Source: Clostridiales bacterium (lineage in GTDB: Bacteria; Bacillota; Clostridia; Ch29). From it: 64,000 nt of DNA. Both the position numbers and the translations under genes were made by a program. Below are positions 1,201 through 61,572 of the stretch, one piece after another. The stretch lies in contig JAAYJF010000075.1 in NCBI GenBank assembly GCA_012523075.1, forward strand, positions 21,009-85,008. The letters are read 5' to 3'. Within the stretch, counting starts at the first letter, position 1, and every line of letters begins with the position of its first letter. The notes under the pieces were generated by a model. It was given only the letters and a program-made list of their open reading frames with translations, was not told the DNA's origin and made no database searches.

Positions 1201-1320
1201 ATATACAATACGCTAATTGTATTGCATTCCTTTACCTGCCATCCCGAAGAAGCGAAGCCAGAAGAATCTGACAGCCGCTTCGCTCAGCATGATGCGTCAG
1301 GAGGTGCAAAGTTTTAAATG
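1201..1320 (+). repeat. Dispersed composite intergenic repeat, copy 1
   Basis: Shares its 5' end (ATACAAYRCGCTAATWGTATTGCATTCCTTTAYCTG), internal CCGAAGAAGCGAAGCC / GAAGAATCTGAC units and its 3' end (..AAAGTTTTAAATG) with copies at 6893, 46001 and 61403 (reverse). Confidence 0.6.
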
Positions 1321-1418
1321 CATTATATATATAATATTTTTATGCTCCGGTAGGAAGGGTGATAACTAATATGTTATAATGTAGAAAAAAGCGCAGACTA
1401 TTCTTTTGGAGTGATAAT

Positions 1419-2447
1419 ATGCAATTCATCAAGGGAAAACCTGGCATAGATATAGAGGATACGCCGGTGGAAAACATTTTTATTGATGCCTTTATGCCGT
1501 CCGCAGAGGGAAACTTTGTAAAGGTATACCTGCTTGGATATAAGTACGCCTGCAGCCGGGACCGCTCATCGGGTTTTTCCAACGAGACCATCGCCCGGGC
1601 GCTGGATATTCCGGTAACAACGGTTTTGAAGGCATGGGATTATTGGGAGAAAAGGGGTATAATCAAAAAACACTACCGGAAAGAAGATAAATCCAACTTC
1701 TCCGTAGAATTCTTAAGCCTTAAACAGCTGTACATAGACAACTACCGTAGCGTATCCGACAACACCCTCGAAGGGTCGAGGGGCGCCTACACCCCCTCGG
1801 ACCTTATGCAGGCCATGGGCGATACAAGAATCAGGGATATGTTCAACGAGGTGCAAAAGATTATATGCCGGCCCTTAACCCCCAGCGAAAGCTTGCAGTG
1901 CCTGGAGTGGCTTTACGATTTAAAGATGGCTCCGGAGATAATAGAGGAAGCCTTCCGGTATTCGGTAGAAAAAAAAGGGGTTAAGAGTATAAGGTATGTA
2001 AACGCCATTATAAGTAGCTGGTACGACAATAACATAAACACGCTGGAGAGGCTTTCCGAGCACCTGGAGGTTACCGACGCCAGGTACAGCCGGTACAATG
2101 CGGTGATGAAGGCTCTGGGAAGACCCAAAAACCCGACAAGAATTGAAAAACAGTATATTGGTAAATGGCTGGATGAATACGCTATGCCAGTGGATGTGAT
2201 ACTGAAAGCCTGCGACAAGGCCGTTATCCAGACACCTAATCCCCCGCTCAATTATGTGGACGGGATAATAACAAAATGGTACAGGGACGGGGTAAAGACC
2301 CTTTCCGATATACCGGATGGGAAAAAAGAACCTAAGCCCCAAAAACGTAAAGGCGTAAGAAATAGATTCCACAACTTTGACCAGCCGGCGCTTAAACTGA
2401 CAAACGAACAGCTCAAGGAAATACTTAACAAACACAGGGATGCTTAG
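1419..2447 (+). CDS. DnaD-domain replication initiation / membrane attachment protein (B. subtilis DnaB-like, two DDBH2-type repeats)
   Basis: 342-aa ORF with a GGAGTGA ribosome-binding site. Two DnaD-like C-terminal repeats (..YVNAIISSWYDNNINTLE.., ..YVDGIITKWYRDGVKTLSD..). Immediately followed by a DnaI-like loader gene. Confidence 0.75.
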   Translation: MQFIKGKPGIDIEDTPVENIFIDAFMPSAEGNFVKVYLLGYKYACSRDRSSGFSNETIARALDIPVTTVLKAWDYWEKRGIIKKHYRKEDKSNFSVEFLSLKQLYIDNYRSVSDNTLEGSRGAYTPSDLMQAMGDTRIRDMFNEVQKIICRPLTPSESLQCLEWLYDLKMAPEIIEEAFRYSVEKKGVKSIRYVNAIISSWYDNNINTLERLSEHLEVTDARYSRYNAVMKALGRPKNPTRIEKQYIGKWLDEYAMPVDVILKACDKAVIQTPNPPLNYVDGIITKWYRDGVKTLSDIPDGKKEPKPQKRKGVRNRFHNFDQPALKLTNEQLKEILNKHRDA

Positions 2448-2458
2448 ATTGTGGGAGA

Positions 2459-3442
2459 GTGTGGTATATGGAAAAAAACATAAACGAAATACTAAGAGAA
2501 TATGAAGCTTTGCAGTCCCGGGCAGAAAAGGAAAAGAAGGAAAGGGCGGAGAAAATCCATCGGAAAATACCGCGGATACGGGAGATTGATGACACCATAA
2601 GCAGGCTAGGCCTTGAGTGCACTTCCTATTCCATAGGCCTTAAACCCTCCGAGCAGAAGGAATACCTGGAGGCCTTTGCCCGGAAGGTGGAGAAGCTTAA
2701 ACATGAAAAAACAGCCCTCCTTAAGGACCACGGCTATCCTCCGGACTATATGGAGATAAAATACCAGTGCCAAAACTGCAGCGATACAGGGTACATAGGG
2801 CAAAAAAAATGCGCCTGTTTTAGACAAAGGCTGATAGACAGGGCATATAATCAATCCAACCTAGGTAGCGTTCTGTCCAGGGAGAACTTTGGAACCTTTG
2901 ATATCAATCTTTTTCCTGATGAAAAATTCCAGGGCCATTCAAAAACACCCAGGCAGAACATGCTGGATATTTTAAGCCGATGCGAGGCCTTTACGCATAA
3001 CTTCGAAAAGGACAACGGCGAAAATCTGCTTTTATACGGTGGTACCGGGCTGGGTAAAACCTTTTTATGCAACTGCATAGCCAAAAAACTGCTGGATAAG
3101 GGAAAAACAGTACTGTACCTTACCGCCTTCAAGCTGTTTAGAATACTGGAGGAATACCGTTTCCGACCAATGGATGCAGCGCCGAATAAGGAGATGCTGG
3201 ATTTTATTTTAACCTGTGACCTTCTAATAATTGACGACCTGGGAACGGAGCTTGCAAACAGCTTTACCAACTCAGAGCTGTTCAACATTATAAACACCCG
3301 GCTTTTAGAGAGGAAAAAAACTATTATTTCCACTAATCTTCAGCCGAATGACCTAATTGATATTTATGGTCAAAGAGTATTCTCAAGAATATCTGCCCGC
3401 TACAGGGCACTGGAGTTTTATGGTCATGACCTGAGGATGTAA
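2459..3442 (+). CDS. dnaI: Primosomal helicase loader DnaI (DnaC/IstB-like AAA+ ATPase)
   Basis: N-terminal Cys4 zinc module (CQNCSDTGYIGQKKCAC). Walker A GGTGLGKT and Walker B LLIIDDLG. GGGAGAGTG ribosome-binding site. Forms an operon-like pair with the upstream DnaD-domain gene. Confidence 0.8.
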   Translation: MWYMEKNINEILREYEALQSRAEKEKKERAEKIHRKIPRIREIDDTISRLGLECTSYSIGLKPSEQKEYLEAFARKVEKLKHEKTALLKDHGYPPDYMEIKYQCQNCSDTGYIGQKKCACFRQRLIDRAYNQSNLGSVLSRENFGTFDINLFPDEKFQGHSKTPRQNMLDILSRCEAFTHNFEKDNGENLLLYGGTGLGKTFLCNCIAKKLLDKGKTVLYLTAFKLFRILEEYRFRPMDAAPNKEMLDFILTCDLLIIDDLGTELANSFTNSELFNIINTRLLERKKTIISTNLQPNDLIDIYGQRVFSRISARYRALEFYGHDLRM

Positions 3443-6865: not shown

Positions 6866-6892
6866 AGAAGCCCCTCCTTACTCATAAATAAC

Positions 6893-7110
6893 TCACCAAT
6901 AGTGTTACATTTCATTATCTGTCATTCCGAAGAAGAAAGCCCGAAGAATCCGACTTTGTCGTTCTGAACGCAGTGAAGAATCTTACACTTTCAACAACCT
7001 GAAGGTCCTTCGTTTCACTCAGGATGACAGGCATTATGCAAGGTCCTTCGCTTCGCAAGATCCTTCGCTTCGCTCAGGATGACAGCTGCTGCACTCAGCA
7101 TGACAACCAT
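6893..7110 (+). repeat. Dispersed composite intergenic repeat, copy 2 (contains several GTCATYC...GAAGRATC units in both orientations)
   Basis: Begins CACCAATAGTGTTACATTTCATTATCTGTCATTCCGAAGAAGAAAGCCCGAAGAATCCGAC, then runs through GATCCTTCGCTTCGCTCAGGATGACAG units. Homologous to the 1201, 46001 and 61403 copies. Confidence 0.6.
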
Positions 7111-20487: not shown

Positions 20488-21126
20488 TCAGCCCTCCGCT
20501 CGCTGGGCTTTAAAGAGGTCCATCACTTCCCTGTCGGAAGCTTGATGAAAGTCCTCGTAAAACATACCGACTGCATAGAAGGGATATGGGCTTTCAAGGC
20601 ATACAACCTTGTCCACCACCTCCAGCAGGTCCTCTACCACATCGTTGGGGGCCACCGGTACCGCAATAACTATCTCGGCCGCTCCCGACTTCTGAATGGA
20701 TTTAATGGCTGCCTTTATTGTAAAACCTGTAGCTATGCCATCGTCCACCAATATAACCCTTTTACCTCTTATGGATACTGGAGGCCTGTTTCCAATATAA
20801 AGCTTCATTCTTCTTTTTATTTCGTTTATCTGAGAGTTCTTCTCCCTTTCTATGTATTCCCTGCTGACATTAAGATACATAACCATCTCCTCATCCAGTA
20901 GCAACGTTCCATCTTGGGTCACGGCGCCAATGGCAATCTCCCTGTTAAAGGGTGCCCCTATCTTTCTAGGAATTATCAAATCCCACTGGCATTTTAGTTC
21001 TTCCCTTATTGCATTGGCAACCAGCGCCCCTCCCCTTGGCACCGCCAGTATAACCACGTCTTCTCCCCGGTATTCTTTAAGATGCTTGGCCAGCTCCAGG
21101 CCTGCCGCCCTTCGGTTCTTAAACAT
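20488..21126 (-). CDS. Phosphoribosyltransferase-family protein (COG1926)
   Basis: PRPP-binding motif VILVDDGIATG. Confidence 0.75.
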   Translation of the reverse strand: MFKNRRAAGLELAKHLKEYRGEDVVILAVPRGGALVANAIREELKCQWDLIIPRKIGAPFNREIAIGAVTQDGTLLLDEEMVMYLNVSREYIEREKNSQINEIKRRMKLYIGNRPPVSIRGKRVILVDDGIATGFTIKAAIKSIQKSGAAEIVIAVPVAPNDVVEDLLEVVDKVVCLESPYPFYAVGMFYEDFHQASDREVMDLFKAQRAEG

Positions 21127-21136
21127 CGTATACCCC

Positions 21137-21391
21137 CTAGAAAAGTGAACTGTAAACGCCCCTTTGCAAAATAGCTTCTATTTCGTCAACCGTTTTGCCT
21201 TTCCCGTCTATCATAAGCACTGCGGTGTTATTGTAAGAATCCGCATTATGAAAATCCCTGATACCGTCATGGTATATACAGGCATCCACCCCGGTGTGCG
21301 GCCCGTAAAGGTCCACAACCTCGTATCCTCTGTCCTTAAGGTCCTCTATTAGATTTTGAAATCTGCCATCCACTGCGATTGTCTTTCTCAT
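21137..21391 (-). CDS. YkuS / UPF0180-family small protein
   Basis: 84 aa, MRKTIAVDGRFQNLIEDLKDRGYEVVDL.. Confidence 0.65.
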   Translation of the reverse strand: MRKTIAVDGRFQNLIEDLKDRGYEVVDLYGPHTGVDACIYHDGIRDFHNADSYNNTAVLMIDGKGKTVDEIEAILQRGVYSSLF

Positions 21392-26272: not shown

Positions 26273-27205
26273 TCACAGCCCGGTCTCCTCCCGGACCGCC
26301 GGTCGCCTTGTTGGCCCGGTACTTATAGTCACATGCCGCTCTCCTATTACCAGCACTTTCCCCCCTACCTTTATGCCCTCCGGCCCAACCTTTACGTAAA
26401 TCGCCGAGGGCTTCCCCATGCCGGCTCCCTGTTTGCAGACAATCTCTCCTTCCGTTATTAGGCCCCGTTTCAAAAGGTAGTATCCCAAGGCGCCGTTAGA
26501 GGTCCCGGTTGCCGCCTCCTCGTTTATGCCCACGGCAGGACCGAAATTTCTGCACCTGACATCAAAGCGCGCTGTCCCTCTCTCCAGCGTAAAGGCATGG
26601 ACTCCCACCACCCCCAAACGCCGGGACAGTTCCGCCAGCCCCGGGAAGTCCGGCTCCATAGAGTCCAGTGCTTTTCTCGTAAGCACAGGTACTATTATAT
26701 CCGGTAGCCCCGTACTAATCATTTCCGGCACGGCTTCTTCCAGCCCCGGTATCCCCACCTGTCCGCTTTCAAGGCCAAGGCAAGAGCAAAGGTGCCGCAA
26801 GTCCTCTCCCCCTACCACCCCCAAGGCCCGGGGCTCCGCTTGGCCCATATATACCTTGTCAACCCTTCCCCGCCGAAAACTAATATAGACCGGCAGCTTG
26901 CCGGCCTTTGTCTCCAACATGACTTTTGCGTTTCCATCCTTTCCCCTGACAAGGCCTAGGCCTCCCGCTAGGTAAAAGGCCGCTATCGTTGCGTGCCCGC
27001 ATACTGGCACCTCGCATTCCGGCGTAAAGAACCTGCCGCTAAATCCCTCCCGGCGGGGGCTAATAAAAACCGTTTCCGAAAGCCCTACCTGTTTCGCCAC
27101 CTGCTGCATAGCATCCGATGGCGGGAATTTTTCGCATATGGTCACCCCTGCGCCGTTGCCTCCACTTCCCCGATAGGTAAAAGCGTTAACCAGATATACC
27201 CTCAC
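26273..27205 (-). CDS. PhzF-family isomerase (phenazine-biosynthesis-like protein)
   Basis: 310 aa, GTG start with a GGGGGA ribosome-binding site, DAP-epimerase-like fold sequence. Confidence 0.8.
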   Translation of the reverse strand: MRVYLVNAFTYRGSGGNGAGVTICEKFPPSDAMQQVAKQVGLSETVFISPRREGFSGRFFTPECEVPVCGHATIAAFYLAGGLGLVRGKDGNAKVMLETKAGKLPVYISFRRGRVDKVYMGQAEPRALGVVGGEDLRHLCSCLGLESGQVGIPGLEEAVPEMISTGLPDIIVPVLTRKALDSMEPDFPGLAELSRRLGVVGVHAFTLERGTARFDVRCRNFGPAVGINEEAATGTSNGALGYYLLKRGLITEGEIVCKQGAGMGKPSAIYVKVGPEGIKVGGKVLVIGERHVTISTGPTRRPAVREETGL

Positions 27206-27221
27206 AGAGCATCCCCCTTTA

Positions 27222-27285
27222 ATAGTGGCTAGTGGCTGGTAACCAGAGTTGCTCTTGCTAGTCTGTCCTAGCCACTAGCCACTAT
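27222..27285. repeat. Perfect 16-bp inverted repeat (ATAGTGGCTAGTGGCT / AGCCACTAGCCACTAT) with a 32-nt spacer
   Basis: Seen directly; located just upstream of the phzF-like start. Confidence 0.5.
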
Positions 27286-27408
27286 ACGCTAACCGCTAAA
27301 ACATATGCCTTTGTTTTTAAGCCTTCGGGTCGCCTTGCTAACCGGTTTAAATATGGGCCTTCCCTTGGTGGAGCCTCCCGAAGCTGGTCGCCTGTTCTAT
27401 GTCCTTAA

Positions 27409-27424
27409 TGTTTCACGTGAAACA
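27409..27424. promoter_or_regulatory. parS: parS centromere site (TGTTTCACGTGAAACA, perfect consensus) overlapping the 3' end of spo0J/parB
   Basis: Exact 16-bp universal parS palindrome (20 bp with AA/TT flanks), overlapping the parB stop codon as in B. subtilis. Confidence 0.85.
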
Positions 27425-34511: not shown

Positions 34512-34522
34512 TCACAGTCAAT

Positions 34523-35155: not shown

Positions 35156-35844
35156 TTGGATTCCTCCTTAGCCTTACCTCCACGGCCCAGGCCAAAGTAT
35201 TGCTGCACTATCTGGAATACATTGCTAAGCACCCAATACAGTGTGACTCCGGCAGGAAAACTAAAACTAAAGTATCCTATCATAAGAGGCATTATCGTAT
35301 TCATCGTACTTTGGGTGCCTTCGGCATTCTTGGGCGTCACCATCTTTGACTGGTAGTAGGTTGTAGCGGCGGCCAGTATAGGCAATATCCACATTACCGG
35401 CTCCTTCATGCTTTCCGTAAAACTTGATGTCGCCGACAGGTCTTCTATCCAAAGAAAGCTCTTGTTTACCGTTTCATAAACCTCCGGAGTAAACACATAT
35501 CGATCAGGTAACCTTAAAACCTGAAACAGTGCAAACAGTATTGGAAGTTGTAATAGAAGAGGCAGGCATCCACCGGCAAAAGGGTTGACATTATGCTGCC
35601 TGTACAGTTCCATGGTCTTTTCATTTAGCTTCTGTTTATCGTTGCCGTATTTCTTTTGCAGCGCCTTTAACTTCGGGTTAAGCTCCTGCATCTGTTTCAT
35701 CGACTTGGTCTGTTTCAGCGTAAGCGGCAGTAGAATTAATTTTACCAGTATGGTAAAGACTACTATCGACAATCCATAACTGTTGACCATGTTATATATA
35801 CTAAAGAGCAGCCTTCCCAATGGTACAGAAATCGCGTTAATCAT
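35152..35844 (-). CDS. yidC: Membrane protein insertase YidC / SpoIIIJ
   Basis: 230 aa; 5 TM helices; conserved ..QLPILFALF.. Confidence 0.9.
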   Translation of the reverse strand: MINAISVPLGRLLFSIYNMVNSYGLSIVVFTILVKLILLPLTLKQTKSMKQMQELNPKLKALQKKYGNDKQKLNEKTMELYRQHNVNPFAGGCLPLLLQLPILFALFQVLRLPDRYVFTPEVYETVNKSFLWIEDLSATSSFTESMKEPVMWILPILAAATTYYQSKMVTPKNAEGTQSTMNTIMPLMIGYFSFSFPAGVTLYWVLSNVFQIVQQYFGLGRGGKAKEESN

Positions 35845-35865
35845 TTCTCTCCCCCTATTCTGTGG

Positions 35866-36075
35866 TTATTTTACGGGGTCATAACCTCCCGGATGGAACG
35901 GATGGCACTTCAGTATCCTTTTGCCAGCCATGAACGTCCCCTTTATTGCTCCATGCTTGTCTATGGCTTGAATTGCATATTCTGAACAGGTCGGATAGAA
36001 CCTGCACTTTCCAATTTTTATGGGTGAAATAAACATCCTGTACAAAGATATAATAAAAACAAGTACCTTTTTCAT
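35866..36075 (-). CDS. yidD: Membrane protein insertion efficiency factor YidD
   Basis: 69 aa; ..[25 protein letters not shown].. Confidence 0.85.
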
Positions 36076-36422
36076 TTTAATCCTTCTTTTTCCACGAGTT
36101 TATGTCTTACCAGCAAATCTGCCATCCATTTCTCTATGTCTTTGTATTCCATCTCTTTTGCCTGCATCCGGGCTATCAGTACAAGGTCATAGCCCTTTGC
36201 AATTCTCCCGGAATATTTCCTGTATGCTTCCTTTATAAGCCTTTTTACTCTGTTTCTTACAACGCTCTTTCCAACTTTTTTGCTGACACTTATGCCTATT
36301 CTGTTATACTCTTTTCCATTGCTAAGTACATACATCACCAGTACGGGATTGGCCTTGCTCCTGCCTCTATTGTAAACTCTGGAGAAGTCTTTGCTAGCTC
36401 TAATCGAAATTAAATCCGCCAT
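36072..36422 (-). CDS. rnpA: Ribonuclease P protein component
   Basis: ..[26 protein letters not shown]..; start chosen at MADLISI.. (AAGAAGGG ribosome-binding site). The track ORF extends to 36497. Confidence 0.8.
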
Positions 36423-36578
36423 AAGAACCCTTCTTTTCACTGTTCCTGCATAAAATATGTGCATGTTGCCAACGCTGTATTCTGCGGGCACACACATGGA
36501 ACAGCTTATTTACCTACAATGATATTATAATAGCTCTTCAGCCCTAAAAATCTATAAAAAGGCCCCCTGGTAGCGGCC

Positions 36579-36713
36579 TTATGCTGTCAACCTTTTCCTT
36601 CCTTTTTTTCTTCTGTTTTTTAATATCCTTCTTCCAGTGCTAGTTTTCATCCTTTTTCTGAAACCGTGTTCCTTCTTTCTTTTCCTTTTTTTAGGCTGGT
36701 AAGTCATTTTCAT
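36579..36713 (-). CDS. rpmH: 50S ribosomal protein L34
   Basis: The minus-strand translation [44 protein letters not shown] is 44 aa. It is missing from the ORF track because it is shorter than 60 aa. Confidence 0.9.
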
Positions 36714-36823
36714 AAGTCACACCCCCTCTTCCTTGTCTGGGCTTTTTGAGACTGTTCCCCGAATTATATATAGATTATAGCCTTATTGAATATTAGTGTC
36801 AAGAAAATGAAATTGTGGATAAT

Positions 36824-37078
36824 GTAAAAATCGGTGTTATTTTTTGTGGATATGTTGCCGATAATTATTGATAACACCGGAATAATTTGTTATCATAAGA
36901 TAGCATCTTGGGACGAACGGGAGCATATGCAAAAAATTCGTCTGCCCTTTTATTTGCAACGATATAAGGACTATAGCCGACAGCTCCCAACCGTTTAAAA
37001 ACAGTTCTTATTTATATTTTATTTATTACCCGGGGGAAGAAAATTATTCCTAATCAATGTGGACATTTGTGTGGACAA
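36824..37078. promoter_or_regulatory. oriC: oriC part 1: DnaA-box cluster upstream of dnaA, including the dnaA promoter region
   Basis: Perfect TTATCCACA (reverse complement at ~36824-36832), TATCCACA (~36845), ATGTCCACA (~37058) and TTGTCCACA (~37070). Confidence 0.7.
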
Positions 37079-37100
37079 CCCATATTAAGGAGGCAATACA

Positions 37101-38444
37101 ATGGAGAACGACACGACATCCGTTTGGGAAGAAACTTTGACGCTAATAAAGGACGAACTTGCGGAAGTAAGTTTCAATACATGGTTCAAAGTTATCCAAT
37201 TGGTTGAAACAACCAATGAAAAAATAGTACTTTGTGCCCCTAACGAATTTATTAAAAACATTCTCGAAACCCGATACATAACGCTTATTTTCAATGCCCT
37301 AGAACAGGTAACCTCCAAACAGTACGATATAAGCATTATACTGCCAGAGGAAAGGGATTCCAAAACCCAGGGCGGTGGCAGAAATAAACAAAACGATGAG
37401 AGGGATTCGCTCACTTCCGATTTGGGTATATTAAATCCAAAATATACCTTCGACACCTTTGTTATTGGAAACAGCAACCGGTTTGCCCACGCTGCTTCTC
37501 TGGCGGTATCCGAGGCACCCGCAAAGTCCTACAACCCGCTTTTTATATACGGAGGGGTTGGACTGGGCAAAACCCATCTTATGCATGCCATAGGGCACTA
37601 CATACTAAGAACCAATCCAAGGACCCGGGTTTTGTATACAACCTCGGAAAAGTTTACAAACGACCTTATCAATTCCATAAGGGATGATAAGAACGTTGAG
37701 TTCAGAAACAGGTACAGGACCACCGATGTTCTGCTTGTGGACGATATACAGTTTATAGCCGACAAGGAAAGGACCCAGGAGGAGTTTTTTCATACCTTTA
37801 ATTCGTTGTACGAGTCCAGCAAGCAGATAATAATCTCCAGCGACCGGCCCCCTAAGGAAATACCCACGCTGGAGGACAGGCTTAGGTCAAGGTTTGAATG
37901 GGGCCTTATTTGCGATATTCAGCCCCCGGACTTTGAGACCCGTATAGCCATACTAAAGAAAAAAGCCAGGCTGGAGAATATATCCACCCCCGATGAGGTG
38001 CTTGTGTTTATTGCAAAAAAAATAGAATCAAATATCCGGGAGCTGGAAGGTGCCCTCATAAGGGTTGTTGCATATTCCTCCCTTACAAACAGGGAAATAA
38101 ATATGGACCTTACCCAGGAAGCCCTTAAGGATTTCTTCTCTAATTCCAAGCCAAAGCCAGTGACGGTGGATTTGATAAAGCGGGTCATATCCGAATATTA
38201 TTCTATAAGGATAGAAGACTTCAAATCTAGAAAACGCACCCGGGCCATTGCATTCCCACGACAGGTAGCCATGTACCTGGCCAGGGAACTGACCGACCTT
38301 TCACTGCCCAAAATTGGGGAGGAATTCGGCGGAAGGGACCACACAACAGTACTGCACGCCTACGATAAGATTTCAACCGAGCTTAAAAGGGATGAATCCC
38401 TTAAAATAGCAATGGGTGAAATACAAAAAAGGCTAAACGGTTAG
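37101..38444 (+). CDS. dnaA: Chromosomal replication initiator protein DnaA
   Basis: Walker [11 protein letters not shown]; DnaA signature; C-terminal HTH; 447 aa; AAGGAGG ribosome-binding site. Confidence 0.98.
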
Positions 38445-38525
38445 CCCCTTCCGCTGGGGATAACCGGTTGATAACCTGTTGACTATTACAAATGGAATAT
38501 ATACCCATATTCAAAGAGTGCATAG

Positions 38526-38670
38526 TGTGGAAAATCATACACCGATTAATAACAATCGGTTAACAGACGGTACTGTTCCTCCTGCTACAGTCCGGTCTCT
38601 TTTCCACATATCAACACCCCCTACTACTATTACTACTATATTTTTATATATTTATATAATAAAAACTTGG
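38526..38670. promoter_or_regulatory. oriC: oriC part 2: DnaA boxes plus an AT-rich DNA unwinding element between dnaA and dnaN
   Basis: TTTTCCACA (reverse complement, ~38526) and TTTTCCACA (~38600). The 40-bp AT tract ACTATATTTTTATATATTTATATAATAAAAA ends at the dnaN ribosome-binding site. Confidence 0.7.
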
Positions 38671-39791
38671 TTTTGGAGGTTATTCACATGAAACTTGTTT
38701 GTAGCAGAGATGAATTACTGGAAGGAATACTGACAGCCCAAAAAGCGGTACCTTCGAGAACCACTCTTCCTATACTCCAGGGTATACTGCTAGACTGCAG
38801 GGACGAAACCCTGAAGCTTAGGGCTACAGATCTTGAAATTGGAATAGAATGTAGTGTTAATGCAGATATAGTGGACAAGGGTTGGGTTGTACTGGATTCA
38901 AGACTGTTGGGAGAGATTATCAGAAAACTCCCCCCGGAGGATGTAGAGGTTTTGGTGGTTGAGTGTAATATTGCCGAAATTAAGTGTGCAAACTCCAGTT
39001 TTCGTCTGCAGGGGCAAAGCGGTGAAGAGTTTCCGCAACTGCCGCAGGTGGACGGTGAAAGAAGCCTAATAATTCCCCAGGACCTGCTAAAGAGCGTTAT
39101 AAGGCAGGTGGTTTTCGCCTGTGCGGTGGAAGAAACAAGGCCTATACTGACAGGAGCGCTGGTGGAATGCATATCGGGGGATATGGTTATGGCAGCCCGT
39201 GACGGGTTCAGGCTTGCGGTAAGGAACGTAAGGCTCGAAGATGCCCGGGAGGATATCTCGGTGGTTGTACCCGCCAAGGCTCTAAATGAAATACAGAGAA
39301 TTTTAAGGGATACCCAGCAGGGAGTACAAATAAAGCTGGCAGGTAACCATATCCTGTTTGGCATGGAGGATACAAGGGTTATTTCACGTCTTTTGGAGGG
39401 CGATTTTATTAACTACAAGCAGATTATTCCAGAGGAATACGGCACCTGTATACGGCTAAAGAACGAAGAACTGCTAGAGAGCTGTGAAAGGGCTTCTTTG
39501 CTGGCCAGGGAAGGGAAGAATAATCTCATTAAGTTAAGCATAACAAAGGAGCGGCTGGAGATTACCTCCAACGCCGAAATTGGGGACGTACGGGAGGAAA
39601 TTTTAGTGGAAACTGAGGGACAGGACCTGGAGATCGCCTTTAATTCCAAGTATCTAACCGATGTACTTAAGGTAATAGAGGGCGAGTATTTACGAATGGA
39701 ATTTACCACCAGCGTAAGCCCCTGCATAATAAAGCCGGAGGGCAGTGAAGACTATATTTACTTGCTGCTGCCGGTAAGGGTAATTTCATAA
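38667..39791 (+). CDS. dnaN: DNA polymerase III beta sliding clamp
   Basis: 374 aa; MKLVCSRDELLEGILTAQKAV.. Confidence 0.97.
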   Translation: MVLEVIHMKLVCSRDELLEGILTAQKAVPSRTTLPILQGILLDCRDETLKLRATDLEIGIECSVNADIVDKGWVVLDSRLLGEIIRKLPPEDVEVLVVECNIAEIKCANSSFRLQGQSGEEFPQLPQVDGERSLIIPQDLLKSVIRQVVFACAVEETRPILTGALVECISGDMVMAARDGFRLAVRNVRLEDAREDISVVVPAKALNEIQRILRDTQQGVQIKLAGNHILFGMEDTRVISRLLEGDFINYKQIIPEEYGTCIRLKNEELLESCERASLLAREGKNNLIKLSITKERLEITSNAEIGDVREEILVETEGQDLEIAFNSKYLTDVLKVIEGEYLRMEFTTSVSPCIIKPEGSEDYIYLLLPVRVIS

Positions 39792-39802
39792 AAAAGGTAG
39801 CG

Positions 39803-40057
39803 GTGTTAGCATTTAATGTGGGAGATGGTGACGTGGAAAAGGTGCATATAAGGGGACACCATATAACCCTTGGCCAGCTTTTAAAGTTGTCTGGTATCGC
39901 CCAAACGGGTGGCCAGGCAAAATTTATGGTTGCAGACGGAAGGGTTAGGATAAACGGGCGTATAACCTTTCAAAGGGGAAAAAAGGTTTTCCCCGGGGAT
40001 ATTGTGGGTTTGGACGGCAGAGACGTAATAGAGGTGAGACCCGGGGAGCAGGGGTGA
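39803..40057 (+). CDS. yaaA: S4-domain RNA-binding protein YaaA
   Basis: ..TLGQLLKLSGIAQTGGQAKFMVADGRVRINGRI..; GTG start. The alternative start at ~39833 gives a ~75-aa protein like B. subtilis YaaA. Confidence 0.75.
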   Translation: MLAFNVGDGDVEKVHIRGHHITLGQLLKLSGIAQTGGQAKFMVADGRVRINGRITFQRGKKVFPGDIVGLDGRDVIEVRPGEQG

Positions 40058-40073
40058 AAAAACCGATGATTGC

Positions 40074-41204
40074 TTGATTGGAGTGGATGGATTGTACCTT
40101 AGGGAGCTTAAACTTATAAACTTCCGAAACTATAGGGAATCGGCTGTTAGTTTTTCACAGGGAATTAATTTTGTGGTGGGAAATAACGCCCAGGGCAAAA
40201 CAAACCTTGTGGAAGCCATATACCTGCTTTCGTCGGGAAGGTCCTATAGGACGCCGGTTGACAGCGAGTTGCTTAGATGGGGTGCCGATACCCTTTATAT
40301 AAAGGGCAGTGTGGTGGAAAACACAGGCGAAAAGTCCATAGAGATAGGCATAAGGGGTAACAATAAAAGCATTAAGGTTAACGGTGTGCAGCTTGTCAAA
40401 AGGGGTGAACTTTTCGGGAATCTTACAACGGTTATATTTTCCCCCGACGAGCTAAAATTGGTCAAGGAAGGCCCAAGCCACAGGAGAAAGTTTATGGACC
40501 AGGAAATAATTCAGATAAAACCAGCCTATTACTATGTTTTGACCAGCTACAATAAGGTATTGTACCAGAGGAATTCGTTTCTGAAAGCTTCAATGGCGGG
40601 CAGGTTTGATACCGATATCCTCGGGGTATGGGACAAGCAACTGGCCGAATATGGTGCCCGGCTTATCTATTACAGACAAAGATTTATAAAAAGGCTTTCA
40701 GGGTTTGCCAAATCAATGCACAGCAAGCTAACCAACGGCCAGGAGGACCTTGAGGTTACATACCAGTGCTGCATAGGGCAACAGCAAGAGGAAAGTCTTT
40801 CAGATATTCGGTCCTGGTTTTGTGGAAAACTTCAAAGCTGTAGGAGTAGGGATTTTAAAACCGGAGTGACCAACTTTGGTCCCCACAGAGAGGACCTGGG
40901 CGTCAGCGTGAACGGTATAGACGTTAGGAAATACGGGTCCCAGGGACAGCAGAGGACGGCAGCTCTGTCCATGAAACTTTCGGAGATAGAGCTGGTTAAG
41001 TCGGAGACTGGCGAGTATCCTGTGCTGCTTTTGGATGATGTTATGTCTGAGCTTGATCCTTTAAGGCAAAAATATATACTGGAAAACCTGGCCCGGGTGC
41101 AAACCTTTATCACCTGTACCCACCTTACCGGGGTCATGAAAAAAAGGAGCGACAGCGCTAAGGTTTTTCATGTGAATAGTGGTATAATAACTACGGAGGG
41201 CTGA
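40074..41204 (+). CDS. recF: DNA replication and repair protein RecF
   Basis: Walker A GNNAQGKTNL; signature; 376 aa. Confidence 0.95.
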   Translation: MIGVDGLYLRELKLINFRNYRESAVSFSQGINFVVGNNAQGKTNLVEAIYLLSSGRSYRTPVDSELLRWGADTLYIKGSVVENTGEKSIEIGIRGNNKSIKVNGVQLVKRGELFGNLTTVIFSPDELKLVKEGPSHRRKFMDQEIIQIKPAYYYVLTSYNKVLYQRNSFLKASMAGRFDTDILGVWDKQLAEYGARLIYYRQRFIKRLSGFAKSMHSKLTNGQEDLEVTYQCCIGQQQEESLSDIRSWFCGKLQSCRSRDFKTGVTNFGPHREDLGVSVNGIDVRKYGSQGQQRTAALSMKLSEIELVKSETGEYPVLLLDDVMSELDPLRQKYILENLARVQTFITCTHLTGVMKKRSDSAKVFHVNSGIITTEG

Positions 41205-41232
41205 TCGGCTCGGTTGTCAGGAGGAGATAAAG

Positions 41233-43519
<2,287 letters not shown>

Positions 43520-43531
43520 GGGGGAAAGAGC

Positions 43532-45955
43532 ATGACAGAGAAAAAGGACAATATTATCACGATAGACATACAACAGGAAATGAAAAAATCCTATATAGAT
43601 TATGCCATGAGCGTTATAGTAAGCAGAGCCCTCCCCGATGTAAGGGACGGCTTAAAACCGGTGCACCGGAGAATACTGTATGCTATGAGTGAACTGGGCC
43701 TTACTCCGGACAAACCCCACCGAAAATCCGCCCGGATAGTTGGGGATGTACTCGGTAAGTACCATCCCCATGGGGATACCGCTGTTTATGATGCAATGGT
43801 GAGGATGGCCCAAGACTTTTCAACAAGGCAGCCCCTTGTGGACGGGCACGGTAACTTTGGTTCCGTTGACGGGGACAGCGCCGCTGCCATGCGTTATACC
43901 GAAGCAAGAATGGCCAAAATAACCCTCGAGATGCTGAGGGATATAAACAAGGACACGGTGGACTTTATACCCAACTTTGACGAATCCTTGAAGGAACCAG
44001 CGGTTCTGCCATCCAGATTTCCTAATATACTGGTTAACGGAGCGTCGGGTATAGCGGTTGGTATGGCTACCAGCATACCTCCCCACAACCTGGGAGAGGT
44101 AATAGATGGTGTGATAAGGCTTATAGATTACCCTGATATTGGTATAAAGGACCTTACAAAGGTAATTAAGGGGCCGGATTTCCCTACTGGAGCAACCATA
44201 ATGGGTAAGAACGCAATAAGGGAAGCCTATGCCACCGGAAGGGGAAGGGTGACGGTACGGGCCAAGGCTACCATAGAGGCCTCATCGGGCAACCGGCACA
44301 GGATAATAGTCACCGAGATTCCCTACCAGGTCAACAAATCCAGAGTCATCGAAAGGATAGCCCAACTGGTTAGGGATAAAAAGATAGAAGGTATTTCGGA
44401 TATCCGGGATGAAACCGACAGAAAGGGCATGCGTATAGTAATTGAACTTAAAAGGGACGTAAACCCCCAGGTGGTGCTTAACCTGCTTTATAAGCATACC
44501 CAGTTGCAGGATACCTTCAGTATAATTATGATAGCCCTTGTGGATGGACAGCCCAGGGTTCTTAATCTAAAGGAAATACTGGAATACTACCTGGCCCACC
44601 AGAAGGATGTGGTGCGCAAAAGGACCATATACGACCTAAACAAGGCGGAGGAAAGGGCCCATATACTGGAGGGCCTTCGAATTGCCTTGGACAATATAGA
44701 CAGGGTTATTGCAATAATAAGGGGTTCCAAAACCGACCAGATAGCCAGGGACGGCCTTATGAAAGAGTTTGGCCTTTCGGAAAAACAGGCCCAGGCCATA
44801 CTGGATATGAGGCTTCGAAGGCTCACTGGGCTGGAACGGGATAAGATAGACGAGGAATATAATGAACTTCTTGAAAAAATCAGATATTATAAGGAAGTGC
44901 TGGAGAAGGAAGAGCTTTTGGAATCTATAATAAAGGAAGAAATGCTACAAATAAAGGCAAAGTTTGGCGATCTAAGGAGAACTAGTATAGCACCGGATGC
45001 CAAGGAATTCGATATAGAGGACCTTATTGAGGAACAGGAGGTGGCAGTAACCCTTACCCATTTCGGTTATATAAAAAGGGTGCCCGCCGAAACTTATCGC
45101 AGCCAGAGGCGGGGCGGAAGGGGAGTAACTGCGCTAACCACCAAAACCGAGGACTTTGTGGCGGAAATATTTACTACCTCCACGCACAGTTTCATTTTGT
45201 TTTTCACCAATCGGGGGAGGGTGTACCGGCTAAAGGCCTACGAGATTCCTGAGGCGGGAAGGCATGCAAGAGGTACCGCCATAGTAAATCTACTACAGCT
45301 TTCAGGCAATGAAACCATCACCGCTGTTATTCCCATAAGGGAAGTTGAAGAGGAAAAATTTATGCTATTTGCAACCAGGCGAGGCATGGTAAAGAAAACA
45401 CCCTTAAACGAATACGCTTCCAACAGGAAACACGGGCTTCAGGCCATAGACTTGCTGGACGGGGACGAGCTGATAGGTGTAAAGCTTACCACAGGCAGCG
45501 ATCATGTATTATTGGCTACTAAAAAGGGTTATTCAATAAGGTTTAGCGAGAAAGACGTAAGAAGCATGGGCAGATATACCCGGGGAGTTAGGGGTATAGC
45601 CCTTGGCGGCGATGACCAGGTGGTGGGGATGGAATTGGTAAGGGAGGGCGCAGACCTTCTAATCGTTACCGTAAAGGGTTTTGGAAAGAGAACAGAGCTG
45701 GAGGAATACGGGCTGCAAAAAAGAGGCGGCAAAGGGCTAAAGACCTATAGGATAACCCGTAAGACAGGAGACATTGTAGGCATAAAAGTGGTGGACGAGC
45801 ACAACGATATAATGCTTATCACCAAAAAGGGTGTAGTAATAAGGCTTAATGTTAACGAAATCTCAAGGATGGGAAGAATTACCCAGGGTGTAACCCTTAT
45901 GAAGTTTGATAAGGACCAGACGGTGGTATCCATCGCCAGAATTGAAAAGGACTAA
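43532..45955 (+). CDS. gyrA: DNA gyrase subunit A
   Basis: Catalytic region [10 protein letters not shown]; GyrA box; 807 aa. Confidence 0.98.
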
Positions 45956-45958
45956 GTT

Positions 45959-45990
45959 AAAGGCCCCTTTTACAGGGGCCTTAGTTTTAA
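45959..45990 (+). terminator. Rho-independent terminator after gyrA
   Basis: AGGCCCCT TTTAC AGGGGCCT hairpin followed by TAGTTTT. Confidence 0.65.
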
Positions 45991-46000
45991 CTATTCTTAA

Positions 46001-46188
46001 TATACAACGCACTAATAGTATTGCATTCCTTTATCTGTAATTCTGAAGAAGCGAAGCCCGAAGAACCCGGCTCTGTCATTGTGAACGTAGTGAAGAATCC
46101 GACGCCGTCGCTTAAGAGGGCGAAGCCCGAAGAATCTGACTACCGTTACGCTGGAGATGATACACTAGAAGATGTAAAGTTTTAAATG
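46001..46188 (+). repeat. Dispersed composite intergenic repeat, copy 3
   Basis: TATACAACGCACTAATAGTATTGCATTCCTTTATCTGTAATTCTGAAGAAGCGAAGCCCGAAGAAC ... GGCGAAGCCCGAAGAATCTGAC ... GATGTAAAGTTTTAAATG. Collinear with copy 1. Confidence 0.6.
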
Positions 46189-46337
46189 TGCTATGTGTTG
46201 AAAACCTGTAAAATGGTCGTGATGCGGCAAAACCCTGTGGATTTTTGGTATAATGGTGTGTGAAAATGAAACAGGGGGGTATGAATAATATGTGCAGTCT
46301 GAATTCTTATAATAAAAACGGTGGAGGAGAATATAAT

Positions 46338-54878: not shown

Positions 54879-55220
54879 AGGGCGTAAAGCCCTTTTGCTT
54901 TATACACGTTATATTTAGGCTTCACGAAGGTGAATTGCCAGGCATCCATCATCTACGCTGCGCAAACCCGCAGTAATGCTCGTATGAGCTCGATGGCTCC
55001 GGGAATTTTCAAAAACTCGCCTAACGGCTCAAACACTTGAAAATTCTTATCCTCCGCCCTCTGCGCTCCTTTTATTTGTGCGGGATAAAGCTCCGCTTCA
55101 GATGACTTGATGCCTGGTTACGAAACGTTTGGGGTGATATGAGGTTTCATGATGTCCATAAAACGGTTTGAATAAGTTGAGGTTTTCTTCAGACTGAGGG
55201 GCGTAAAGCCCTTTTTTAAT
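54879..55220. repeat. Segment bounded by direct repeats GGGCGTAAAGCCCTTTT containing a degenerate copy of the dispersed repeat family
   Basis: The direct repeat occurs at 54879-54897 and 55201-55220. The internal ..CTCCGCCCTC.. and ..GATGACTTGATGCCTGGTTACGAAA resemble the 61403 copy. Confidence 0.3.
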
Positions 55221-55631: not shown

Positions 55632-57899
55632 GTGCAGCTTTCGGATAATGCCATTAGGGTTTTGGAAAGGAGATACCTTACAAAGAATGAAGAGGGAGAG
55701 GTAATAGAGGCTCCGGAGCAGATGTTCCGACGGGTAGCCCGTACGGTAGCATCGGCGGAGGCCTGTTACAATACCGGCACCAACCCTGAGGAGCTGGAAG
55801 AAACCTTTTACCAGCTGCTTAGCAGCCTTGAGTTTATCCCGAACTCGCCTACCCTTATGAATGCCGGCAAGGACCTGGGGCAGCTTTCCGCATGCTTTGT
55901 GCTACCGGTGGAAGATTCCATGGAGGGAATATTCGACGCGATAAAACAGGCGGCAATAATACACAAGAGCGGTGGGGGGACGGGCTTTAGCTTTTCACGG
56001 CTCCGTCCCGCCGGTGCTACGGTAAATTCCACTGGCGGCGTGGCTTCTGGACCGGTTAGCTTTATGAAGGTTTTTAACGCCGCCACCGAGGCGGTAAAGC
56101 AGGGGGGCGTACGAAGGGGTGCCAACATGGGTATTCTGCGGGTGGACCACCCGGATATCCTGGAATTCATTAAATGCAAGAGCGATAATAAGGATATTAC
56201 CAACTTCAATATTTCCGTTGCAGTTACCGAGGAATTTATGAGGGCGGTGGAAAGGGGCGGGGAGTATGCCCTTATAAATCCCCGGGATAAAAGCATTATC
56301 CGGTACATAGATGCAAGGGAAGTCTTTGACCTTATAGTGGAAATGGCGTGGAAGAATGGTGAGCCCGGTATCATATTCATAGACAGGATTAACGAATACA
56401 ATATTCTTAAAAAAATTGGGGATATAGAGAGTACAAACCCGTGCGGGGAGCAAGTTCTGTTACCCTATGAATCCTGCAATTTAGGCTCCATAAACCTGGC
56501 CAGGCTGGTCAAAAAAGAAGGAGACAAGACGGTTATTGACTACCAAAGGCTTGGCAAAATAGTGGATGACGCCGTTTGGTTCCTTGACAACGTGATTGAT
56601 GTAAATAAGTATCCGCTGGAGTCAATCGAAAAAGCCACTAAAGGTTCCAGAAAGATAGGCCTTGGTGTGATGGGCTTTGCGGATATGCTTATAAGGCTAG
56701 GGATACCCTATGATACGGACGAGGCGGTTGCGGCTGCCGAGGAGGTTATGGGCTTTATAAACCGGCGCTCCAAGGAAAAGTCGGCAGAGCTTGCCGCGGT
56801 AAAAGGGAGGTTCCCCTTTTATCAAGACAGTACCTACGCGGCGCAAGGCATTGAACTTAGAAATGCCACCACCACCACCATAGCCCCCACCGGTACCATA
56901 AGCATAATCGCCAACGTCTCCAGCGGCATAGAACCCTTGTTTGCTCTATCCTTTGTACGCAACGTGATGGATAATGACCGCCTGCCGGAGGTGCATCCCA
57001 TATTTGAGGAAATAGCCAAAAGAAAAGGGTTTTATAGCCGGGAACTGATGGAAGAGATTGCCCGCAAAGGAACGCTGCGGGATATAGGGGGTGTGCCGGA
57101 GGATGTAAAAAGGCTATTTGCGACGGCCCATGACATAGGCCCCGAGTGGCACGTAAGGATGCAGGCTGCTTTCCAGAGGCATACCGACAATGCGGTGTCC
57201 AAAACGGTTAATTTCCCCAGCCATGCCACAAGGGAGGACGTGCGGAAGGTATACCTCCTTGCGCACAAACTGGGCTGTAAGGGAGTAACCATATACAGGG
57301 ACAAAAGCAGGGAAGAGCAGGTACTTAGCATTGGAAACCATGACGGCGCTCGGGGGGGTGCGAAGGGCGAAAAGGCGGCAGGGGCCGCGGGGAGAGAGAC
57401 CATAACCCCCAGAACAAGGCCGGAGATTACCAAGGGGCTTACCGAGAAGGTGAAGATTGGCTGTGGCAACCTTTATATAACGGTAAACTATGATGATAGT
57501 GGTATATGCGAGGTATTCACCAACCTGGGCCGTGCCGGGGGATGCCCCAGCCAAAGCGAAGCCACCAGCCGGCTTGTATCCATAGCCCTCCGGTCGGGGA
57601 TAAGCGTTGAAGCGATAATAGAGCAACTTAAAGGGATACGCTGCCATTCAACCATCAGGCAAAAGGCCAACGGAAACGAGGTGAAGGTGCTTTCCTGCCC
57701 CGATGCCATAGGAAAAGCCATTGAAAGGGCCATGAAAATGAACCGCGGAGCCGGTGCCATTGTTAAGGAGGACCTGACGGCCGAGGGTGCTCCGGCCAGG
57801 GACGGTTTAAAGGCTATATGCCCCGAGTGCAACGGTGCGCTGGAGCACGAGAGTGGCTGCGTTGTGTGCCGTAGCTGCGGGTTTTCAAGGTGCGGCTGA
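55632..57899 (+). CDS. nrdJ: Adenosylcobalamin-dependent ribonucleoside-triphosphate/diphosphate reductase (class II RNR)
   Basis: 755 aa; active-site TNPCGEQ; C-terminal Cys pairs [14 protein letters not shown]; GTG start with a GGGGGTG ribosome-binding site. Confidence 0.93.
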
Positions 57900-60832: not shown

Positions 60833-60871
60833 CGGGTTTTCTTACCCAGCACTGTAGAGGGGTGATATCAA

Positions 60872-61369
60872 TTGTCATTTATACGTTGTTTCCCACCGGT
60901 TGTGGATGAAGAATCTCGGGTAATTATACTGGGGTCCATGCCTGGCCGGGAATCCCTACGAAAAAAAGAATACTACGGCCACCCCAGGAACCAGTTTTGG
61001 AACGTTTTGTACGCTTTGTACGACAGGGAGCCGGACTGGGACTACGGTAAAAAGCTCGCGTTCCTTAAGGAAAAGCATATCGCTCTCTGGGACGTAATAG
61101 AAACGTGCCAGAGGGAGGGAAGTATGGACGCCAATATTACAGGCGAAAAGGCAAACGATTTTGACTGGCTGTTTTGCAACTATCCCGGCATCCGGCATGC
61201 ATTCTTCAACGGAACCAAAGCCTATGAGACCTTCAGAAAAAGGGTAGGTTTCAGGTATGATGGAATTACCTATACAAAATTGGGCTCCACAAGCCCTGCC
61301 AACGTGGTGCAGTTTGAACGGCGGCTGGAGGAATGGAGCATTGTAAAGAGATGCGCGATGAACTTATAA
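60872..61369 (+). CDS. DNA-deoxyinosine glycosylase-like protein (UDG superfamily family 6 / hypoxanthine-DNA glycosylase)
   Basis: 165 aa; ..VIILGSMPG..; ..GSTSPAN.. Confidence 0.5.
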   Translation: MSFIRCFPPVVDEESRVIILGSMPGRESLRKKEYYGHPRNQFWNVLYALYDREPDWDYGKKLAFLKEKHIALWDVIETCQREGSMDANITGEKANDFDWLFCNYPGIRHAFFNGTKAYETFRKRVGFRYDGITYTKLGSTSPANVVQFERRLEEWSIVKRCAMNL

Positions 61370-61402
61370 TCTCCTCCTAAAGGAAGCTATATATAACGCG
61401 AT

Positions 61403-61572
61403 AAAGACTTTACATCTTTTAGCGTGTCATCCTGAGCGCAGCGAAGGATCTTATGCCTGGTTGTAAAAAGATTCTTCGGGCTCCGCCCTCAGAATGACAG
61501 GGTAGGATTCTTCGGGCTTCGCCAACTTAAATGACAAGTAAAGCAATGTAATATTATTAATACTTTGTATAT
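61403..61572 (-). repeat. Dispersed composite intergenic repeat, copy 4 (reverse orientation)
   Basis: GTCATCCTGAGCGCAGCGAAGGATC ... GATTCTTCGGGCTCCGCCCTCAGAATGAC ... GATTCTTCGGGCTTCGCC ... AATGTAATATTATTAATACTTTGTATAT. Its reverse complement matches the termini of copies 1 and 3. Confidence 0.6.

Follow-up and report, generated by a model that had tools for sequence, protein, structure and literature searches.

Two groups of tagged hairpins are the closest described relatives of the repeats discussed here. The first comprises the repetitive extragenic palindromes (REPs) that carry a CGTC or TGTC tag. According to Di Nocera et al. (2013; PMC3733652), their stems are 8-9 bp long and start with an A-T pair, their loops have 4-5 nt and a short tail follows; most of them are paired into head-to-head dimers, and some lie within a longer palindrome, for which H. 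neapolitanus with its 41-bp carrier is an example. That paper places them in five phyla, Firmicutes not being among them, includes Neisseria dRS3 and Rickettsia RPE-4 and RPE-6, and describes them as lacking a dedicated transposase and as not associated with the genes of RAYTs (REP-associated tyrosine transposases). The second group, the Ssn-related motifs (SRMs), is represented by the 28-nt Neisseria Transformation Sequence (NTS), CGTCATTCCCGCGMAVGCGGGAATCYRG, to which dRS3 was extended by Chenal et al. in 2025 (PMC11893778). In that work SsnA, a 94-aa single-domain GIY-YIG protein (cd10448), binds NTS solely as single-stranded DNA (ssDNA), binds neither RNA nor double-stranded DNA, and makes its cut at a distance of a few bases on the upstream side; binding depends most on the C that follows the palindrome, cleavage on the three bases that precede it. 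The ssnA genes are often flanked by repeats, the N. meningitidis enzyme lowers transformation by NTS-bearing DNA, and a mobile origin is only hypothesised by the authors (PMC11893778). Here we describe a related repeat in a 64,000-nt stretch of contig JAAYJF010000075.1 from a Clostridiales bacterium (hereafter the window). Four loci in this window, all of them non-coding, stand far above chance as mosaic repeats, and we interpret them as what are probably REP-like mosaics of Ssn-related hairpins, similar in kind to the neisserial intergenic mosaic elements (NIMEs).

The building block of the mosaics is a 25-nt hairpin unit with the consensus tGTC-AT-YCY-GA-GC-GNA-GC-GA-RGR-AT-C. We scanned for it with the pattern GTCATYCYGAGCGAAGCGARGRATC, which allows 16 combinations at four degenerate positions, and found exact matches in 76 viral-contig stretches, where the chance estimate is well under one, and in at least 120 stretches of species-representative genomes. 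The genomes among the matches listed belong to Acidobacteriota/Terriglobia, Chloroflexota, Nitrospirota, Nitrospinota, Planctomycetota and Gemmatimonadota, to Bacteroidota, Ignavibacteria, Verrucomicrobiota, Omnitrophota, Armatimonadota and Bdellovibrionales, and to Patescibacteria, Gracilibacteria, Saccharimonadales, Alpha- and Gammaproteobacteria and a 'delta proteobacterium'; the Bacillota there include Lachnospiraceae, Oscillospiraceae and Clostridia. An exact-sequence literature search with the unit strings returned no relevant paper.

The unit is under clear structural constraint. It is arranged as an AT-YCY/RGR-AT stem followed by a 5'-GA/5'-GA tandem and a variable distal stem-loop, mostly GC-GNA-GC, and the ViennaRNA prediction reproduces the hairpin with the GA/AG part as a 2x2 internal loop. 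In 225 of 228 matches the degenerate stem positions form one of the four Watson-Crick-compensated combinations (the remaining three are two T·G wobbles and one mismatch), and compensation is also found in 138 of 144 other units collected with a relaxed pattern in which pairing was not required, including eight G-C transversion pairs. The apex variants GCGAAGC, GCGCAGC, GCGGAGC and GCGTAGC are all GNA loops. GTC-AT at the head and AT-C at the tail are present in all canonical units and in the intact units of the window. Tags read in window units are ctGTCAT, ttGTCGT and ctGTCAT; among the 228 exact units, GTC is preceded by T in 194 cases and by C in 23 (95% T or C). Units are frequently arranged head to head, 82 of 94 adjacent +/- pairs being spaced 11-62 nt apart, as compared with 7 of 34 pairs within 62 nt, and no peak, in the -/+ order. 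The partners of a doublet often have different stems, each compensated internally (L111, L154, L162), which means that the selected structure is the hairpin of the single unit and not only the long fold-back of the pair. The sequence GCGNAGC is known as a DNA mini-hairpin of two G-C pairs and a sheared G·A pair, formed in GCGAAGC by the G and the A of the GAA loop, with a Tm of ~76 C; it is markedly more stable than its RNA counterpart, and its natural occurrences include the phage G4 origin, ssiA and the promoters of phage N4 (PMC13037366). By analogy, such a DNA-type apex points to ssDNA as the active form of the unit.

The canonical unit is the repeat associated with one large clade of Ssn nucleases. 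Inspection of the 200-800-nt intervals between units, in which a simple GIY..YIG regular expression misses the genes, revealed two unit-flanked open reading frames (ORFs) of ~95 aa, one on a viral contig (L071/L262) and one in a Gracilibacteria metagenome-assembled genome (MAG; L090), both with PF01541 as the only domain. A profile of these two proteins collects at least 7,980 protein clusters at E <= 1e-10, with lengths of ~93-150 aa. Five homologues were then selected solely for sitting on long contigs, and all five have an exact 25-mer ~60-80 nt upstream of the start codon and another one overlapping or just after the stop codon. Flanking units were present in all eight loci inspected (L071/L262, L090, L266, L267, L268, L270, L272 and L278). 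Two homologues with 46-47% identity in viral contigs (L263, L264) are flanked instead by NTS-type units, TGTCATTCCCGCGMAGGCGGGAATCCAG. Two matches in PLSDB extend the comparison: the first (48% identity, E = 6e-17) is a chromosomal locus of N. gonorrhoeae with a 92-aa ORF flanked by NTS copies, hence an ssnA orthologue by context, and the second (58% identity) is WP_083616022.1, a plasmid-encoded protein of Planktothrix agardhii that is annotated as 'GIY-YIG nuclease family protein' and whose gene is flanked by tandem-G·A doublets. Identity between the unit-flanked proteins and the product of the NTS-flanked N. gonorrhoeae gene ranges from 40 to 48%, with the Gracilibacteria protein at 40%. 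Among solved structures, UPF0213 GIY-YIG proteins come nearest, with only a weak match. In contrast, the 150 genes found beside dispersed units in other phyla represent 198 unrelated Pfam families, none of them enriched; those copies are non-autonomous.

A further regularity of the units is the occurrence of half-unit arrays. Eighteen arrays of head-only copies were found in 14 loci from several phyla, with two to four copies placed directly 5' of a complete unit; each copy consists of GTCATYCYGAG and 7-10 variable bases, and the period is mostly 19-21 nt (L102, L115, L121, L125, L135, L172, L278 and others). One of the window elements, copy B below, has the same layout, as its head-only copy at 7091-7104 adjoins an exact unit. 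Tail-only arrays with an 18-nt period are present in L217 and again in copy B, and L217 has four tail-only repeats where the contig of L211 ends after two. The available texts of Di Nocera et al. and Chenal et al. contain no mention of half-unit arrays. We speculate that they arise from repeated cutting and slipped repair at the hairpin.

Two observations on doublets in other lineages may be recorded here. In Acidobacteriota and other MAGs (L089, L117, L140, L151, L169) a doublet is enclosed by a lineage-specific inverted repeat, for example CAGGCTGCGGAAAAA...TTTTTCCGCAGCCTG, parallel to the arms of the Clostridia element described below. In a Bacteroidales MAG (L104, ~2764-2860) a head-to-head pair lies within an apparent sigma-54 activator coding sequence (..IEKAVILSEAKNL..) and may be an in-frame intragenic insertion, as Di Nocera et al. 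reported for REPs.

In the organism of the window the units are part of a larger composite element. A metagenome collection was scanned with a pattern for the 5' terminus, which gave 32 stretches; five were chance matches in gut contigs, and the remaining ones yielded ~25 distinct copies from related anaerobic-digester Clostridia, with the same arms and variable interiors. The element begins with the 5' arm, cTATATAYAACGCAC-TAATAGTATTACATTCCTTTAYCTG in the metagenome copies, which is followed by one to four forward units of a lineage-specific type (type II), GTCATTCYGARG..GCGAAGCCCGAAGAATC or GTCGCTTAAGAGGGCGAAGCCCGAAGAATC. After these come a spacer, zero to four reverse canonical units, ..GATCCTTCGCTNNCGCTCAGGATGAC, and finally the 3' arm, ..GATGTAAAGTYTTAAR.GCGTTATATATAG. 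The arms bear TATATAYAACGCAC, are ~35-40 nt long and are imperfect inverted repeats of each other, ending in TATATA. When the 5' arm was aligned with the reverse complement of the 3' arm, the resulting 33-nt alignment scored higher than all 1000 shuffles, which shows that the element has terminal inverted repeats (TIRs); the imperfect 33-nt TIR reads TCTATATAYAACGCA..TTACAT.TC. Conservation extends to parts that the scan pattern did not cover, namely the outermost 16 nt of the 5' arm and the entire 3' arm. Copy length varies from ~112 to ~253 nt, and truncated copies also occur (L214, L230, L234). All 23 full copies are intergenic, with neighbouring genes in every relative orientation (6 --, 4 ++, 4 divergent, 3 convergent) and no orientation preference, and no recurrent flanking gene was found among the ~25 Clostridia copies. 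The arms were never seen without units, nor the units of this lineage outside arms, and the composite element has no match among the PLSDB plasmids. Taken as a whole, the copies are probably best explained as a non-coding mosaic element that is restricted to a single uncultured Clostridia lineage of anaerobic digesters.

The four window copies were recovered by three kinds of evidence. The unit GTCATYCTGAGCGAAGCGAAGRATC has three matches in the window at up to 3 mismatches as compared with 0.00 expected from shuffled sequences, and GCCCGAAGAATCYGAC has five at up to 2 mismatches as compared with 0.06 expected. A repeat search linked the segments 1196-1266, 6879-6949 and 45995-46065 directly with one another, as well as 1252-1320 with 46120-46188 and 6937-6982 with 46054-46099, while many inverted matches tie 61393-61535 to the other three loci. 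Profiles of the arms, which were built mostly from metagenome copies and without copy B in the training set, found the 5' arm at 1198 (E = 2.4e-10), 45997 (E = 4.6e-14), 61575 on the minus strand (E = 3.5e-10) and 6881 (E = 1.2e-4), and the 3' arm at 1301-1334 (E = 4.7e-7), 46169-46202 (E = 8.9e-6) and 61418-61385 on the minus strand (E = 7.2e-9). The copies and their parts are as follows.

1198-1333, plus strand: copy A, ~136 bp, between divergent peptidase M1 (minus) and DnaB_2/DnaD-like (plus) genes
1198-1238, plus strand: 5' arm of copy A
1238-1268, plus strand: degenerate forward unit of copy A, tag GCC
1277-1293, minus strand: truncated reverse unit of copy A
1301-1333: 3' arm of copy A
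6881-7104, plus strand: copy B, ~224 bp, from the terminator of a DUF1858 gene to the start of a gene for a FAD-dependent protein, both genes on the minus strand; without a 3' arm
6881-6920: diverged 5' arm of copy B
6921-6950 and 6958-6982: forward units of copy B
7004-7028: reverse unit of copy B, 3 mismatches
7041-7056: tail-only partial unit of copy B
7059-7083, minus strand: reverse unit of copy B, the exact canonical 25-mer GTCATCCTGAGCGAAGCGAAGGATC, 0 mismatches, the sole exact 25-mer in the window
7091-7104: head-only partial unit of copy B
45996-46199, plus strand: copy C, ~204 bp, immediately behind the gyrA terminator, with spoIIAA downstream
45996-46037: 5' arm of copy C
46037-46067: forward unit of copy C, tag GTA
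46075-46099: forward unit of copy C, apex ACGTAGT
46107-46136: forward unit of copy C
46144-46161: decayed reverse head of copy C
~46167-46199: 3' arm of copy C, terminal TATATA lost
61386-61575, minus strand: copy D, ~190 bp, between convergent genes for uracil-DNA glycosylase (UDG, plus) and sspH (minus)
61575-61535: 5' arm of copy D
61535-61506: forward unit of copy D, decayed head
61498-61470: forward unit of copy D, intact, GGGC-GGA-GCCC apex, followed by the spacer
61426-61450, plus strand: reverse unit of copy D, GTCATCCTGAGCGCAGCGAAGGATC, 1 mismatch
61420-61387: 3' arm of copy D

The unit at 7059-7083 has all parts of the canonical hairpin, i.e. the TGTC tag, the stem AT-CCT/AGG-AT, the tandem G·A, the GCGAAGC mini-hairpin and the 3' C. 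A fifth complete copy with both arms, in plus orientation, sits ~70 nt past the window end on the same MAG contig, after an aminotransferase gene (6202-6355 of L253, corresponding to window positions ~64073-64226). As ssDNA, copies A (z = -2.9) and D (z = -2.5) fold back significantly and copy B weakly (z = -1.1), and copy C shows no fold-back (z = +0.46).

A sequence-only reading of the window had already proposed a dispersed repeat family with four clear copies, and these are borne out, as is their intergenic placement in all four cases; further copies were also found, the fifth one on the contig and the ~25 in related metagenome contigs. Other parts of that proposal need to be modified. The conserved termini it described are indeed shared, but the 3' end lies ~13 nt beyond the boundary it had set: the true end of the element reads ..AAATGCRTTATATATA(G) and is the inverted complement of the 5' end. 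Nor do all copies share both termini, copy B having a diverged 5' arm and no 3' arm, and the interior described as a mixture of direct and inverted units does not apply to copy C, in which only forward units are carried. A position beside terminators, which had been called usual, holds for two of the four copies and fails for the other two. The degenerate fifth copy suggested at ~54900-55200 has no units and only a 19-nt likeness to the 3' arm (E = 1.6), and we do not count it as a member of the family. It corresponds to a feature of a different kind, a ~330-nt intergenic stretch (54880-55215) between two direct copies of the hairpin GGGCGTAAAGCCCTTTT (54880 and 55198), with an inner inverted repeat, CCAGGCATC...GATGCCTGG. 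The gene downstream of this stretch (55632-57899) encodes an NrdJ-like ribonucleotide reductase, and Rfam gives no match to the stretch.

The window spans the chromosomal origin, with dnaA at 37101-38444 followed by dnaN, recF, gyrB and gyrA on the plus strand, and with a GC-skew minimum near 37 kb. The minus strand of the ~27000-46000 region carries parAB, rsmG, mnmG, mnmE, jag, yidC, rnpA and rpmH, and a terminator at 45960-45982 precedes copy C. The presence of sspH and of spoIIAA-spoIIAB-sigF indicates a spore former. The DnaA is identical to proteins of MAGs named Clostridia or Clostridiales bacterium and occurs in anaerobic-digester and food-waste metagenomes. The four copies are fixed in this species: all of them are present, essentially unchanged, in every strain contig recovered (99.8-99.9% identity), copy C being conserved for example in strains L001, L002, L005 and L006. 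At the strain level the elements differ only in copy A, where the terminal TATATA varies in length by (TA)2 (1321-1333; L245, L250, L252). Short-read contigs often end inside or at the elements (L003, L242, L244, L256-L261), for example at 46123 in copy C, within copy B and at a point 48 nt past the UDG gene. A repeat with many copies would be expected to fragment assemblies in this way. In strain L002 (JGI 3300053716) a DDE_Tnp_1 insertion sequence (IS) is found after sigF, at L002 ~20880-21344, which corresponds to window position ~47981. This IS was considered as a parent of the repeat and rejected, its ends being unrelated to the repeat arms.

How might such units work? In the single-stranded state, i.e. 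during replication, transformation or repair, each unit would be able to fold into a 21-nt hairpin in which a 5-bp stem is followed by two sheared G·A pairs and capped by the GCGNAGC mini-hairpin, a very stable DNA structure. The presumed model is the situation in Neisseria, where the palindrome and its 3' C are bound by the ~94-aa SsnA and a GTC-dependent cut is made a few bases upstream. Since Ssn homologues in other phyla are flanked by the exact unit, the unit is most likely the cognate site of one Ssn clade. The dispersed intergenic copies would then be non-autonomous relatives of the unit-flanked genes, and the differences in the number of units and half-units between copies may have come about by slippage or recombination between units. 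We infer the action of an Ssn enzyme on the window copies in this organism, and likewise the mode by which the element spread.

A number of points weigh against this interpretation. No GIY-YIG homologue is present in the 64-kb window or in the fetched loci of the species and its relatives (tblastn, E <= 1), and the lineage-specific type II unit has 0 matches in viral contigs and none in other phyla. Only three of the ~11 full-length units of the window are intact (7059-7083 on the minus strand, 61426-61450 on the plus strand and 61470-61498 on the minus strand), and five more of the mapped units are partial. No canonical 25-mer matches the SRM search string of Chenal et al., HGTCWYN(0-2)YYVSBRHN(0-5)WNVSBRGN(0-2)RNCYNB (PMC11893778), whereas the NTS control does; the string fails because G·A replaces its paired S/B positions, and its single match in the window, at 21672, is unrelated coding sequence. 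The hairpin also departs from that of the CGTC-tagged REPs, having 5 pairs, two G·A and 2 further pairs with a 3-nt loop as opposed to stems of 8-9 bp with 4-5-nt loops by the text of PMC3733652. Ssn is a nuclease, and any mobilisation by it would be hypothetical; the arms are not known to have a function. Finally, none of the four copies shows presence/absence polymorphism among the strains, and the element ends lie within (TA)n, where a TA target duplication is indistinguishable from the TIR.

The arms are the natural starting point for another explanation, a TIR-type miniature inverted-repeat transposable element (MITE): a DDE transposase encoded elsewhere, for instance IS630/Tc1-like with a TA target, would recognise the ~35-nt arms and move the element, the hairpin units being cargo or structure-forming filler. 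Such a MITE would be compatible with the Ssn reading. The ~33-nt imperfect TIR formed by the arms argues for it, as do the TATATA ends, which fit a TA target duplication, the size of 110-260 bp, the intergenic position of all copies, the truncated copies, and the strict coupling of arms and lineage units. We nevertheless consider it unlikely. The search turned up no IS whose ends match the arms (those of the IS in strain L002 are unrelated), and there is no recurrent flanking gene; the fixed state of the copies and the merging of target duplication and TIR count here as well, and a transposase model leaves it unexplained that the copies vary in the number of units and not in the arms. Mobilisation as a classical REP or bacterial interspersed mosaic element (BIME, or REPIN) by a RAYT, i.e. 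an IS200/IS605-like Y1 HUH transposase, has some attraction in that the tagged hairpins, the head-to-head doublets acting as larger fold-backs and the mosaic clusters are all familiar from RAYT systems, which also act on ssDNA hairpins. The tag, however, is T/C-GTC and not GTAG, Y1_Tnp is not among the 25 most frequent of the 198 Pfam families of the 150 unit-flanking genes (a limited sample), the gene that is repeatedly flanked by the unit encodes a GIY-YIG nuclease, and CGTC-tagged REPs were found not to be associated with RAYT genes (PMC3733652). We therefore attach almost no weight to a RAYT.

The elements might instead act as RNA, be it as a 3' hairpin that stabilises or terminates transcripts, as a small RNA or as a regulatory leader. 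Such a role is suggested by the two copies that adjoin terminators, by the good folding of copies A and D and by the ability of REPs in other bacteria to stabilise mRNA 3' ends, according to the abstract of PMC3733652. It is nonetheless very improbable. A comparison with the 4227 covariance models of Rfam gave no match to the elements at gathering score (in the window only three tRNAs, in 18 canonical loci none), and the E-value mode, applied to copy B, a canonical doublet and the region 54.86-55.33 kb, gave only sub-threshold matches to generic long hairpins (miRNA precursors). The elements occur in all gene contexts without orientation bias relative to the flanking genes, the T runs stand before and the A runs after the fold-backs, which is the reverse of a terminator, and a consensus scan revealed no consistent promoter or terminator signal. 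The conserved GNA triloop apex is typical of DNA mini-hairpins, and SsnA binds neither RNA nor double-stranded DNA (PMC11893778). The sequence-only reading, which had favoured a MITE- or REP-like element over a regulatory site, agrees with these results: the anatomy of the unit is that of the CGTC/TGTC-tagged REP superfamily, and the element has terminal inverted repeats. A separate idea, that CUGA...GAAG might be part of a hammerhead or K-turn, was dropped, since the CUGAUGA core and the bulge are absent and Rfam gives no match.

If the reading of the copies as mosaics of Ssn-related hairpins is carried further, the 25-mer could mark the presence, across bacteria, of a selfish cassette built as unit-ssn-unit, an extension that we consider unlikely. 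A ~95-aa GIY-YIG ssDNA nuclease would in this case spread its own hairpin, together with gene-less derivatives, by cutting ssDNA and copy-repair; the head-only arrays with their 19-21-nt period would be scars of such cut-and-repair cycles, and the Clostridia mosaic with its TIRs would rank as a second-order element, formed by capture of the hairpins. If true, this would amount to a nuclease-driven miniature mobile element, different in kind from RAYT/REP systems as well as DDE MITEs.

As regards the window, the result is a correct but fairly ordinary repeat annotation. Its units are members of an already described superfamily that is partly characterised biochemically, which reduces the novelty of the family. 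The novelty lies in the tandem-G·A/mini-hairpin variant, in its wide spread over phyla and its near invariance, in the link to an Ssn clade, and in the TIR-bounded Clostridia mosaic. The characterisation of Ssn nucleases and of their hairpin sites dates only from 2025 and is confined to Neisseria-type sequences. Hairpins with a tandem G·A and a GCGNAGC tip are missed by the published SRM string and yet flank a very large Ssn clade, of the at least 7,980 clusters given above. This provides a concrete pair of enzyme and site that it should be possible to address by experiment, and an improved search pattern for the annotation of repeats. It is also our impression that these repeats yield spurious small ORFs of the 'VILSEAKDL' or 'SLRSLRMT' type.

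It is instructive to compare the general features of the element with those of the known systems. MITEs such as Correia/NEMIS and RUP resemble it in being 100-260 bp long, non-coding, intergenic and multi-copy, in having TIRs and fold-back potential, and in their TA-compatible ends. The element differs from them in that no parent IS is known and in that its interior is made of modular REP-type hairpins, not of a deleted transposon. NIMEs and the BIMEs of E. coli are likewise intergenic mosaics in which hairpins alternate with other short motifs and the number of units varies; the spacers of NIMEs are RS elements of 50-150 bp. Here the difference lies in the defined pair of inverted arms and the stereotyped layout, forward units on the left and reverse units on the right, and the units of BIMEs are GTAG REPs tied to RAYT transposases, unlike those of the element. 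There are also similarities to the CGTC-tagged REPs: the CGTC/TGTC tag, a stem that starts with A-T and T-A, the short 3' tail, the head-to-head dimers and the absence of a linked transposase are common to both, and some REP families are nested in longer lineage-specific palindromes as the window units are in their arms. The distribution is different, since those REPs are described from five phyla without Firmicutes, and the unit is found here in a Clostridia MAG and in many more phyla. Compared with the SRM/NTS hairpins, the unit is set apart by two conserved G·A mismatches that separate its 5-bp proximal stem from the GC-GNA-GC tip, its exact 25-mer occurs in many more phyla than the named examples of that work, and the window units lie inside a TIR-bounded carrier with no ssn gene seen nearby; this variant is known from sequence alone. 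Other features are shared: in both cases GTC stands directly 5' of a palindrome that starts with AT, and C directly 3' of it, and in both cases the hairpins are oriented, multi-copy, mostly intergenic and clustered, and flank genes for single-domain GIY-YIG proteins of ~95 aa.

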